Counted from the stretch's first letter, positions 59,201 through 60,951 are shown. The stretch is 64,000 nucleotides of DNA from an uncultured Aquimarina sp. (GCF_947492405.1 NZ_CANLMP010000008.1:225435-289434), one strand, 5' to 3'. Translations and numbers: made by a program. Notes: a model not told the origin generated them from the letters alone.

Positions 59201-60298
59201 GATGAAGCGCTGACCTGGTTGGTAAATAAAGCTGTAGATACAGGTATGGCATTACTGGATCGAGTGATGGGAAGAAGTGCTCCTTCGTCAGAAGAAGAGG
59301 AAACACCTGCAGGTCCTGTTGGTGAAGCATTGACGGAAATTGAAACAGAGAGCGCAAGAGAACAAGACGAAGGTGAAGTTACAGCAGAAGAAGCGCAAGG
59401 CATCAAAAATAAGGTGAATACAGATCATGCTTCTGTAATTAATATTTCTTCGGTTACGGATGGAGATGATACTTGGGATTACAATTATGTACAGCGAGCT
59501 GTTAAAAAAACACCTAAAAAACCACCAACTCCACCTACAGTTATTAATCCAACCTTAGATTCGAAAGGTAGACCCGGTACAGTAATAGCAGATCCTCTAA
59601 CTAGTGTAGCATCTTCTTATGGACCAGGTGTAGCTTCAGGTTCTAGAGCAATAGTTTTCGGAAATAGTATGGTAAATACGCATATAGCTAAAAATGCAGG
59701 AGGTCAGTCCGAAGCTAAAGGAGTACACATTTTATCTCATCATCTACATGGTAAATGGGCTAACTGGAATATAGTTTTTGGTTCGCAATCGTTAAATAGC
59801 AGAATGTTAAGTGGTCCAGAAACGATAGGTAAAAATAATACAGCTAAGACCTTACGATATTCTATGACTGTAAATTATTACGAAAGCACAAATAATGATG
59901 CGTTATTAAGTGGTCCTTCACCTACGCCAGCAGATATTAGAAAAGCGTTAGGATTCTATATAGCAGAATCTATAACCGCTCAAGTGGATGAGATAAATGG
60001 TACTAATGTGACATCTCTTTACCCATCTCAAGATGTTCAGGGTAGTTTCCCAAATTTAGCAATAGTACCGGCTATCCCTCCCGAAACACAGGTGTTAAAT
60101 TTGTTAACTGCAGATAAAATAGCAGGTCAAACGATTATCAAAAATGGTGTAACCTATACAAAAACTACATTCACATCAGTTTTTGATATGGCGAGAGCTC
60201 TAGGGAAAGATAATACAGTTATAAGTAATGCTGTTCAAGCCTTGAATGTTGCCGGAGGGGATATCACAAAACATGGAAATAATTATTATGTCATATGA
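56252..60298 (+). CDS. Large DUF4157 protein with helical repeat core and C-terminal His-Me (Endonuclea_NS_2-like) nuclease domain
   Basis: QPKL leader, LLAHELTHTVQQ (57053-57067), long amphipathic helical region, LDSKGRP...GVHILSHHLHG..NWNIVFGSQSLN. Confidence 0.8.
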   Translation: MFKTATAHTTNAKSSNSSLFQKETGDSAFIQPKLNIGKPGDKYEVEADRVADTIVAKGNDQSNSFFSPAPLVQKQSEEEVQKQEYTENQIQQKPLVEHISPLVQRQVEEEPLQQKEEEEIQKQPEEEVQQKEAVPETTIQEKTESSSVVPEIQKQEEEIQEKEEEEEDMPVQTKANTAVSSSGVENSSIESRLHSSKGGGSPLPKDTKTQMESGFGTDFSNVRVHTDSNAKQMSQDMGAQAFTHGNDIYFNEGKFDTSSNSGKHLLAHELTHTVQQGGGIKRKVQNVTSAPKMIQGFGILDLIPNWIINNARHIPGYLLFTVIIQYDPLLGQRVEPTPINLLRGLMGLVPFGTAIFDKLQEYNIIQRVFDWVSGRLGELNLTTQGILDLVEEAWDESSLTTFIDVVREKFNELLSRIELFAISLVDQILTWIKEALIDVAEPILEENRAWSLIKKIIHYDPLRDEEVTATTVEILEDFLMLIGKETELEQMRERGTLQETADWLDTQVGTFMSLLGELRGLITAAWDAIRPANLTEIATNLTALSGRVTGFLERVWAFALTVAIEVLKLIKKALLSWLSSVANETRGFSLVKVIIGKDPFTDERVPRTVPNLIRGFMSLMDGGEAQYAQMVETGAIARITGEIEAAVETLNMTPESIVQLFTDLWNSFSIDDLLNPIDAFIRIIDTFGEPIGRLIAFVAEIVRIVIVAILEIMNFPFELIGNIITRSLQAMEDIKRDPIGFLKNILRAIKEGFVKFFDNIVTHLINGVMGWLMRELRDAGIPELTDFSLQGVISWVLEVLGLSMERIWEKLAEHPRIGPERVARIRGAINTLEGIWTFIKDVQERGIAAIWDKIQEQLSNLWNIVLDAVKNFVMTRIITQITTKLLSMLDPTGIMAVINGAMAFFNAIQSFIQYLREMLEVINSFVNGVADIAQGNVATAADYLERTMGQSMPVVIGFLANQVGLGGIGARIAEIIGSVRALIDEALTWLVNKAVDTGMALLDRVMGRSAPSSEEEETPAGPVGEALTEIETESAREQDEGEVTAEEAQGIKNKVNTDHASVINISSVTDGDDTWDYNYVQRAVKKTPKKPPTPPTVINPTLDSKGRPGTVIADPLTSVASSYGPGVASGSRAIVFGNSMVNTHIAKNAGGQSEAKGVHILSHHLHGKWANWNIVFGSQSLNSRMLSGPETIGKNNTAKTLRYSMTVNYYESTNNDALLSGPSPTPADIRKALGFYIAESITAQVDEINGTNVTSLYPSQDVQGSFPNLAIVPAIPPETQVLNLLTADKIAGQTIIKNGVTYTKTTFTSVFDMARALGKDNTVISNAVQALNVAGGDITKHGNNYYVI

Positions 60299-60951
60299 AA
60301 AAGAAATATTCAAAAGAAGTAGAAAAGTTATTCTCTTATGGTAGTACAGATCTTTTAGATGTTTGGCCAAACTATATAAAAGATATAAACCTGGAAGAAA
60401 AACATTGTGATGAACTTATTGATGTGATTACAAGTTCTGATCTTAGTAAAGCTATTTCAGGTTTTACAATTCAGGATTTTGGACCTAGACATGCCTGGAG
60501 AGCGTTGGGGCAACTTAAAAGTAAAGATGCAGTTACCCCACTTTTAGATGCATTAACTGCTCAAAAAAATGAAGAAGCTTTTGATTTTAGAAATGAACTG
60601 CCTAAAGTGTTACTATTAATTGGGGATGAAATAATTCCAGAACTCCAACTCTTTTTGAATAATGATAAGATTGAATGGAATTTCAAAGTAATTATATTCG
60701 AAGCATTAGTGAATTTAGCCAAACAAGAAGTTGCTATAAAAGATGTTGTGGTAGGTGTGGCAAATGATCTTTTCATTAGTAATACGAACAAAAGCATATT
60801 TCTTTCAAGACTTCTGAACCTAATATTTCCGCTAAAACCGTATGATTCAGAAGTAATAAAAGATGTTATTGACAAGGATAAATATGATGTTGCAACCATT
60901 AATCATGAGGAAATATTGAAATTTATAGAAGAATCAAAAATGTATGAATAA
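60295..60951 (+). CDS. Helical-repeat (DUF1186/HEAT-like) protein, candidate immunity
   Basis: GPRHAWRALGQLKS..AV.PLL motif; ATGA overlap with the nuclease gene. Confidence 0.6.
   Translation: MKKKYSKEVEKLFSYGSTDLLDVWPNYIKDINLEEKHCDELIDVITSSDLSKAISGFTIQDFGPRHAWRALGQLKSKDAVTPLLDALTAQKNEEAFDFRNELPKVLLLIGDEIIPELQLFLNNDKIEWNFKVIIFEALVNLAKQEVAIKDVVVGVANDLFISNTNKSIFLSRLLNLIFPLKPYDSEVIKDVIDKDKYDVATINHEEILKFIEESKMYE

Follow-up and report, generated by a model that had tools for sequence, protein, structure and literature searches.

A diverged His-Me nuclease tip and its overlapping candidate immunity gene on a predicted cargo protein of an extracellular contractile injection system

What does the C-terminal tip of a very large protein encoded beside a phage-tail-like injection apparatus do, does the small gene that overlaps it protect the producing cell, and are bacteria among the targets? 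These questions are raised by a stretch of 64,000 nucleotides (hereafter the window) from an uncultured Aquimarina sp. (GCF_947492405.1 NZ_CANLMP010000008.1:225435-289434), in which the operon of an extracellular contractile injection system (eCIS) contains the cargo gene P0001 (56252-60298, + strand; 1348 aa; an open reading frame (ORF) with an eCIS_core match) and, behind it, the partner gene P0002 (60295-60951, + strand; 218 aa). The original prediction had read the end of P0001 as a DNA/RNA non-specific endonuclease toxin with a translationally coupled partner, and the strings on which it relied lie where it had placed them: KKTPKKPPTPP at residues 1085-1095 (59504-59536), LDSKGRP from residue 1102, GVHILSHH from 1157 and NIVFGSQSLN from 1173, with the codon at 59726 encoding H1159. 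The two genes do overlap by ATGA, the TGA stop at 60296-60298 falling on the ATG (60295-60297) of the 218-aa ORF. The tip, that is, the final 253 residues (1096-1348), consists of a nuclease domain of diverged Endonuclea_NS_2 type (residues 1096-1270; 59537-60061, + strand), delimited by a structural model, conservation and a profile match, and of a C-terminal winged helix-turn-helix (wHTH) domain (residues 1273-1348; 60068-60295, + strand), CRP/FNR-like by fold match; neither the wHTH domain nor the eCIS context had been used in the original prediction for the tip. The reading considered probable here is that P0001 is an eCIS cargo with a metal-dependent, sequence-non-specific nuclease tip, that the wHTH domain probably keeps the nuclease on double-stranded DNA, and that P0002 is the inhibitor of the tip.

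The motif likeness of the tip is not significant from its own sequence, but together with its relatives and its predicted structure it goes far beyond chance, and membership in the Endonuclea_NS_2 (PF13930), or His-Me, family is supported by both. When 1.84 billion cluster representatives were searched exhaustively by HMMER with the tip as query, only 22 clusters were returned at E <= 1e-3; several represent C-termini of eCIS_core proteins (1168-1736 aa), and many carry sub-threshold PF13930 matches. PF13930 was matched at the equivalent place in 11 of 14 aligned homologues, and its gathering threshold of 27 bits was exceeded by the tips of two orthologous loci (G016, 29.3 bits; G065, 27.1 bits) and by the L003 protein (29.3 bits). 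When the window subfamily was aligned by hhalign with a profile of tips that pass or nearly pass this threshold, a probability of 96.1% and an E-value of 3.1e-9 were obtained over 103 columns, the H, G, N, N and E of the subfamily being paired with the MHLL...GG...NLvP...vNt...E motif. A protein-language-model search pointed the same way, as PF13930 is present in 17 of the 30 nearest Atlas clusters and EssD-like clusters were also among the nearest. An NCBIfam scan gave nothing meaningful for the tip, and no second copy of tip or partner was found in the window's own genome.

The AlphaFold2 model of the tip (mean predicted local distance difference test score, pLDDT, 84.6) was compared with known structures by VIA-align. 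Its residues 1-175 superpose on NucA of S. agalactiae (4qh0) with Z 12.1 and a root-mean-square deviation (rmsd) of 3.6 over 144 aligned residues, and the model also matches Sda1 (Z 12.0), EndA (Z 11.4), S. aureus EsaD (8gun; Z 10.5, rmsd 2.4 over 120 of 164 residues) and, with Z of about 9-10, EndoG, EXOG and Anabaena NucA; Foldseek gave an E-value of 2.2e-5. In domain numbering, DSSP assigns strands to residues 60-64 and 79-83 and a helix to residues 84-92, so that H64 closes the first strand, N78 stands just before the second and N87 lies inside the helix, a placement that indicates a beta-beta-alpha-metal arrangement. Seven residues are invariant in 19 aligned sequences with a mean column identity of 29%, namely G42, H64, G72, N78, N87, E95 and Y108 (P0001 residues 1137, 1159, 1167, 1173, 1182, 1190 and 1203), and N87 and E95 are spaced by 8, as are N119 and E127 of the Serratia nuclease. 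The predicted active site, based on invariance and profile alignment, therefore comprises H1159 (59726), N1173 (59768), N1182 (59795) and E1190 (59819), all on the + strand. The His-Me assignment of the original prediction is thus borne out by the fold (Z 10.5-12.1), by hhalign and by the conserved residues, and its choice of H1159, invariant and profile-aligned, agrees with the predicted site. Its equation of LHG with the LGG of known toxins did not hold: the histidine of this motif, H1166, is F, Y or G in relatives, and as a catalytic candidate it was rejected as unlikely for lack of conservation.

The wHTH domain (model residues 179-253, P0001 residues 1273-1348) superposes on the corresponding domains of Vfr (Z 9.9, rmsd 2.1, 68-69 residues aligned), CAP (Z 9.5, rmsd 2.0) and CooA (Z 9.0, rmsd 1.4, 62 residues aligned), as well as on the DNA-binding domain of GlxR, the whole range being Z 9.0-9.9 by the same method. 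It is kept across the subfamily alignment, and the subfamily profile weakly matches the wHTH of FadR. In a more distant relative a helix-hairpin-helix (HHH) stands in its place behind a PF13930-positive core. Such DNA-binding appendages suggest DNA as the substrate.

The partner, P0002, is acidic (pI 4.87, net charge -11) and without a hydrophobic segment, and its AlphaFold2 model (pLDDT 94.9) is all-alpha with 12 helices, which describes a predicted cytoplasmic, HEAT-like alpha-solenoid. DUF1186, HEAT_PBS and SEC-C domains are found among its relatives; P0002 itself has no match to DUF1186 (PF06685) at E <= 0.01, 10 of 25 aligned homologues do match it (best 3.5e-8), and DUF1186 occurs in 23-29% of the members of the nearest Atlas clusters. 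No recognised immunity family was found for P0002 by Pfam, NCBIfam or fold search, which gave only generic HEAT/ARM-like matches, and no toxin-immunity complex is present among the listed top 50 fold matches to its model.

The link between partner and tip is seen in genome context. Apart from the window, all nine close homologues of P0002 that were examined (at least 39% identity) lie directly behind the same nuclease and wHTH tip; adjacency thus holds in 10 of 10 loci, the window included, with a 4-bp overlap in six of the ten. Pairwise identities of the partner follow those of the nuclease (r 0.94) and of the wHTH domain (r 0.95) and far less those of the trunk (r 0.40; trunk against nuclease, r 0.25), although these values come from 45 pairs among only 10 related loci and are descriptive rather than a test. 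The homologues carry Flavobacterium names. One locus labelled "MAG: Limnohabitans sp." (JASGCW010000042.1) has the tip closest to that of the window (63%), a partner at 56% and a trunk 83-90% identical to the others, and it probably represents a wrongly binned Flavobacterium contig rather than a betaproteobacterial locus. Reference genomes contain 347 relatives of P0002; among the 80 loci kept from these, a nuclease tip stands upstream in only eight, all of the Flavobacterium type. The idea that the entire superfamily is toxin-linked was rejected: at the 14 distant loci that were viewed, most products are free-standing proteins (about 215-355 aa), and the surroundings vary. Neither of two homologues 32-37% identical to P0002, from Nannocystis sp. 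RBIL2 and a Myxococcales metagenome-assembled genome, is preceded by a nuclease tip; both belong to longer ORFs (about 410 aa when the first possible start codon is taken, the DNA being GC-rich), and in Nannocystis an rve-family transposase is encoded upstream.

The orthologous loci of other species place tip and partner in an allelic context. Trunk residues 800-1010 of P0001 are 95-98% identical in 11 other species, and BLAST alignments to the orthologues stop at residue ~1014-1040 or at ~1090, within the acidic and the Pro/Lys linkers that precede the tip (residues 1009-1084, pI 4.05, and KKTPKKPPTPP, pI 10.5; together 59276-59536, + strand). This is the junction at which the orthologues diverge, and only one of the 11 (G017) bears the same tip type as the window. 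Between the window and G017, identity per 50-residue window of the trunk is mostly 88-100% and the next shared gene (CHAP) is 86% identical, whereas the tip is 24-51% and the partner 41% identical. A second, milder variable region relative to G017 is present in the trunk at residues 301-450 (57152-57601), with 66-80% identity. Eight of the 12 tips are matched by a hidden Markov model (HMM) of the window nuclease family, two of them exceeding Pfam's own threshold. The G+C content, 0.39-0.42 in the trunk (57.5-59.5 kb), falls to 0.37, 0.34 and 0.30 across tip and partner, and this drop over 59500-61000 is consistent with a cassette of separate history.

An ORF occupies the slot behind the tip in 11 of the 12 orthologous loci, and the occupants are unrelated to one another: HEAT-like proteins in the window and G017, ankyrin repeats, which are an immunity class, in G065 (E 1e-27), and several proteins without annotation. 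The G018 slot matches SUKH-1 weakly (E 0.0024), a family named among the immunity partners of nuclease toxins (PMC3482391). Only at G057:C4:515576-520200 is there no ORF behind the tip, a 283-bp gap being followed by the CHAP gene; the 303-aa tip of that locus matches neither Pfam nor the nuclease HMM. Behind more distant nuclease tips of the genus stands another family of small, mutually related proteins. The refilling of the slot by unrelated families is the strongest argument for P0002 as an inhibitor rather than a bystander. P0002 adjoins the tip in all ten loci, co-varies with it and gives way to other genes at orthologous loci; judged from this sequence comparison, it is most likely the cognate inhibitor (antidote) of the tip. 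The polymorphic toxin-immunity architecture claimed by the original prediction is likewise recovered, in that a near-identical trunk bears diverged tip and partner cassettes across species, with a protective role that is predicted for the partner.

Several results weigh against this reading as a whole. On the window tip alone PF13930 reaches only E 0.04-0.05 and 14.1-14.6 bits, below the gathering cut-off of 27; the classical DRGH/GG motifs are altered to KGVH and LHG; a phmmer search of the PDB with the tip found no nuclease but only chance cutinase/PET-hydrolase matches at E 0.25 or above; PDB profile searches with the tip alignments found no nuclease either, one returning the wHTH of FadR alone at E 0.56 and the second nothing; and the putative catalytic residues are assigned from alignment and secondary structure, not from superposition on a solved site. 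On the side of the partner, the best fold matches are ARM/HEAT/TOG solenoids (Z up to 10.4) that lie within helical-repeat noise, the distant relatives (DUF1186 with SEC-C; in cyanobacteria, Chloroflexota and others) are not beside toxins, and the co-variation is descriptive. The sub-threshold score and the altered motifs could mean that the His-Me fold of the tip has degenerated or been repurposed, for example into a non-cleaving nucleic-acid binder or an RNase, rather than being that of a DNase toxin; PF13930 is described as a family of DNA/RNA non-specific endonucleases, and some His-Me toxins are RNases, for instance YobL, YxiD and YqcG (PMC9990079). Nevertheless, His, Asn, Asn and Glu are invariant in 19 sequences so far diverged, which favours an enzyme that is still active, the tip is joined to DNA-binding modules (the wHTH, and the HHH in a relative), and a dedicated partner is conserved, so that loss or repurposing of the fold appears quite improbable. 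It is also conceivable that the tip is a nuclease toxin and P0002 its specific chaperone or loading adaptor, which would maintain the tip in a soluble or unfolded state and hand it to the AAA+ ATPase, comparable cases being EsaE for EsaD and the Eag and DUF4123 adaptors of type VI secretion systems (T6SS). A generic HEAT-like protein-binding solenoid of no recognised immunity family would suit such a role, a tip-specific chaperone would give the same linkage and co-variation as an inhibitor, and most eCIS toxins lack recognisable immunity genes (PMC8213781, PMC3482391). However, the same slot holds an ankyrin-repeat protein and a weak SUKH-1 match at orthologous loci, and slot contents are non-homologous from cassette to cassette, as is usual for immunity genes but not for adaptors, which must also dock on a conserved machine; a cytoplasmic non-specific nuclease must in any case be neutralised, and Tdi5a is a solved HEAT-like immunity protein (PMC13392607). 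A chaperone or adaptor is accordingly judged unlikely, if somewhat less so than a degenerate tip.

The target of the nuclease is a separate matter. The original prediction held that self-protection implies harm to bacteria; the presence of an inhibitor gene alone does not establish this, since every producer of a cytoplasmic DNase has to neutralise it, and NucA/NuiA is a precedent for an inhibitor that protects the producer of a nuclease. The partner could therefore serve producer protection only, in an eCIS directed at eukaryotes such as protists, fungi or invertebrates, and the diversity of cassettes would then reflect drift or recombination instead of kin discrimination among bacteria. Characterised eCISs act on eukaryotic cells and the MAC nuclease kills eukaryotic cell lines (PMC8213781), PVC-type toxins have been proposed to act on distantly related organisms (PMC3482391), and a third cargo next door is a candidate GH19/lysozyme-like protein, possibly anti-chitin. 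What speaks for bacterial targets, circumstantially, is the diversification of the cassette: a tip 24-51% and a partner 41% identical to those of G017 stand on a trunk that is mostly 88-100% identical, the slot is refilled with unrelated families in sister species, which is a hallmark of toxin-immunity diversification between competing relatives, and an inhibitor needed by the producer alone would have no obvious reason to diversify. Toxin-immunity pairs beside eCIS operons have, moreover, been shown by Geller et al. (PMC8213781). A purely eukaryotic target is thus regarded as rather doubtful, while being the most serious of these alternatives, and of the earlier claim what survives is the bacterial target as suggested by the allelic series, not by self-protection.

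For the tip-inhibitor reading, the following course of events is proposed. P0001 and the product of the overlapping downstream gene would be made together in the producer cytoplasm, where the partner solenoid would bind and block the tip, so that the DNA of the producer is spared. The N-terminal leader, which is shared with other proteins of the operon, would send P0001 into the tube lumen with the help of the AAA+ ATPase encoded in the operon, and the partner would stay behind. After injection the tip would cut nucleic acid, with H1159 acting as the general base and N1182 and E1190 holding a hydrated Mg2+. Loading is suggested by analogy: the layout of leader, DUF4157 and variable C-terminus resembles that of the AlgoCIS cargos Cgo1 and Cgo2, which are located in the tube lumen, require the N-terminal domain and are loaded through an AAA+ protein (bioRxiv 10.64898/2026.05.27.728243), and P0001 may be loaded into the particle in the same way.

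The remaining parts of P0001 fit this description. The acidic N-terminal leader (residues 1-200; 56252-56851, + strand; pI 4.55), probably disordered as judged from its composition, is a candidate loading sequence and contains the block FIQPKL..G.P..KYEVEA..AD..V that is common to P0001, to a 606-aa protein and to a 435-aa protein (starts at 53669 and 61083). It is followed by the eCIS_core, or DUF4157, domain, also called "PVC-metallopeptidase" (PF13699; residues 202-279; 56855-57088, + strand; E 1.5e-32), with HELTH, an HExxH motif, at residues 268-272. This domain has been predicted to be a releasing peptidase (PMC3482391) and is dispensable for loading in AlgoCIS (bioRxiv 10.64898/2026.05.27.728243). 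The helical trunk (residues 281-1008; 57092-59275, + strand) is strongly conserved between species. Within it, a hydrophobic helix, LIAFVAEIVRIVIVAILEI (residues 694-712, ~58331-58390; mean Kyte-Doolittle 2.5), may be a membrane-inserting or translocation segment.

P0001 lies within the eCIS operon, which gives the linkage to an apparatus that characterises polymorphic toxin systems. The operon runs on the + strand from about 33.4 kb onward and was called from Pfam matches unless stated otherwise: a Pvc16_N gene (33383-33973) and a sheath gene (35001-36965), then, upstream of P0001, two gp19 tube proteins and a CIS_tube protein, a GPD/base_V (VgrG-like) spike, gp25 and Baseplate_J genes and a PKD-bearing protein of 1279 aa, as well as the tape-measure protein (CIS_TMP, 51495-53171) and the first cargo, a protein of 606 aa with eCIS_core (DUF4157) and OmpA domains (start 53669). 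Downstream of P0002, on the same strand, are the 435-aa protein with the shared leader (61083-62390), which has neither DUF4157 nor any other Pfam match, a PG_binding_1 and CHAP protein (62535-63353), and the 5' part of a predicted AAA+ ATPase gene (63359-64000), assigned through its G017 orthologue, in which the AAA domain covers residues 240-365. Directly 3' of the 606-aa cargo gene, a 223-aa ORF (55518-56189, + strand) with weak TPR matches (E 0.012) could by its position be the partner or immunity gene of that cargo. The CHAP protein, encoded within the operon, might serve particle release as a lysis enzyme or act as an additional effector. At the position of the 435-aa protein a gene of 431-433 aa, matched by position and size, is present in G065, G037 and G018, and there is none in G016, G017, G025, G041, G043, G044, G057 and G076, where the CHAP gene comes directly after the partner slot (in G057 without a partner ORF); this position appears to be a second variable cargo slot. 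A promoter and terminator scan of 55.4-62.6 kb gave nothing exceeding shuffled expectation and no terminator between P0001 and P0002 or after P0002; a sigma-70 consensus is a poor model for Bacteroidota.

The kind of toxin is already known, both as DUF4157 toxins and as PF13930 toxin-immunity pairs. What appears to be new is a nuclease subfamily too diverged for Pfam, its wHTH fusion and a candidate immunity family of HEAT-like, DUF1186-related proteins, together with a clear allelic series of tip and partner cassettes on a near-identical eCIS cargo trunk. Tip and partner constitute, by sequence comparison, a predicted polymorphic toxin-immunity cassette. It is possible, although the balance lies somewhat against it, that the eCIS serves soil and freshwater Flavobacterium species as a weapon between bacteria that discriminates kin, its cassettes being swapped by recombination at the trunk-tip junction. 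If so, only cells with a matching immunity gene would survive injection, and the system would be a natural case of free extracellular phage-tail-like particles carrying polymorphic toxins between bacteria, which would explain when eCIS toxins have immunity genes. Both surveys note a puzzling scarcity of immunity genes for eCIS-linked toxins (PMC3482391, PMC8213781). Here one cargo locus shows the full polymorphic toxin-immunity signature across a dozen species, and its sister-species pairs offer a ready series of cognate and non-cognate combinations with which a role of eCISs in competition between bacteria could be probed. The conserved junction of trunk and tip is also a natural point at which cargo domains could be exchanged by engineering. 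The nuclease subfamily is, in addition, one that standard Pfam annotation misses.

Among known systems, nuclease toxins of the PF13930 family that come with immunity genes are familiar from type VII secretion systems (T7SS), from T6SS and Rhs and from contact-dependent inhibition (CDI) systems. The window tip shares with the PF13930 toxins EsaD/EssD, the C-terminal domain of YeeF and that of Dickeya RhsA, and with NucA, EndA and Sda1, the beta-beta-alpha-metal fold and the His/Asn/Glu set, and like the PF13930 toxins it is C-terminal on a large protein of secreted type with a small gene behind. It differs from these toxins in that its subfamily has LHG, LFG or LYG for LGG, no DRGH and a sub-threshold score (14 bits), in its C-terminal wHTH domain, and in its predicted delivery by an eCIS rather than T7SS, T6SS or Sec. 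Compared with NucA and EndA the His-to-Asn loop is shorter, at 23 residues against about 31. The partner is HEAT-like and not an immunity protein of the DUF600/EsaG or YezG type. EsaD, YeeF and RhsA are listed as DNases (PMC9990079).

For the cargo as a whole, descriptions of DUF4157 proteins in which long linkers lead to toxin domains at the C-terminus date from 2012 (Zhang et al., PMC3482391) and 2021 (Geller et al., PMC8213781), and E. coli served to validate a few of the eCIS toxin-immunity pairs (PMC8213781). P0001 resembles those PVC-type toxins and eCIS-associated toxins (EATs) in its N-terminally placed DUF4157, its very long trunk, its toxin domain at the C-terminus and its location in the 3' part of the eCIS operon; most of the toxins described there are without an adjacent immunity gene, whereas the window cargo has a partner in 11 of 12 orthologous loci that co-varies with the tip. 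A term search of the texts of the two surveys, exclusive of tables and supplements, found neither the nuclease-wHTH subfamily nor the HEAT-like partner (PMC3482391, PMC8213781). By layout description, and not by sequence comparison with Cgo2, the closest parallel is AlgoCIS of Algoriphagus machipongonensis, where two unequal cargos of about 500 and about 1230 aa correspond to those of 606 and 1348 aa in the window, both window cargos likewise having a similar leader, DUF4157 and a variable C-terminal domain, with an AAA+ ATPase in the operon (predicted in the case of the window). In the DUF4157 passages of that source, the C-terminal domains of the Cgo proteins are given no function and an immunity gene is not mentioned (bioRxiv 10.64898/2026.05.27.728243).

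For the pairing of nuclease and inhibitor, the nearest comparison is the T6SS pair Tde5-Tdi5a, in which a non-specific beta-beta-alpha-Me DNase has its active site occluded by an all-alpha protein of antiparallel helix pairs (PMC13392607). That pair belongs to a different secretion system, and Tde5, with three conserved histidines, to another His-Me family, the resemblance of P0002 to Tdi5a being one of fold description, with no homology seen. The same logic is nevertheless proposed for the window, where the all-alpha P0002 would act on the nuclease tip of P0001 as Tdi5a does on Tde5.

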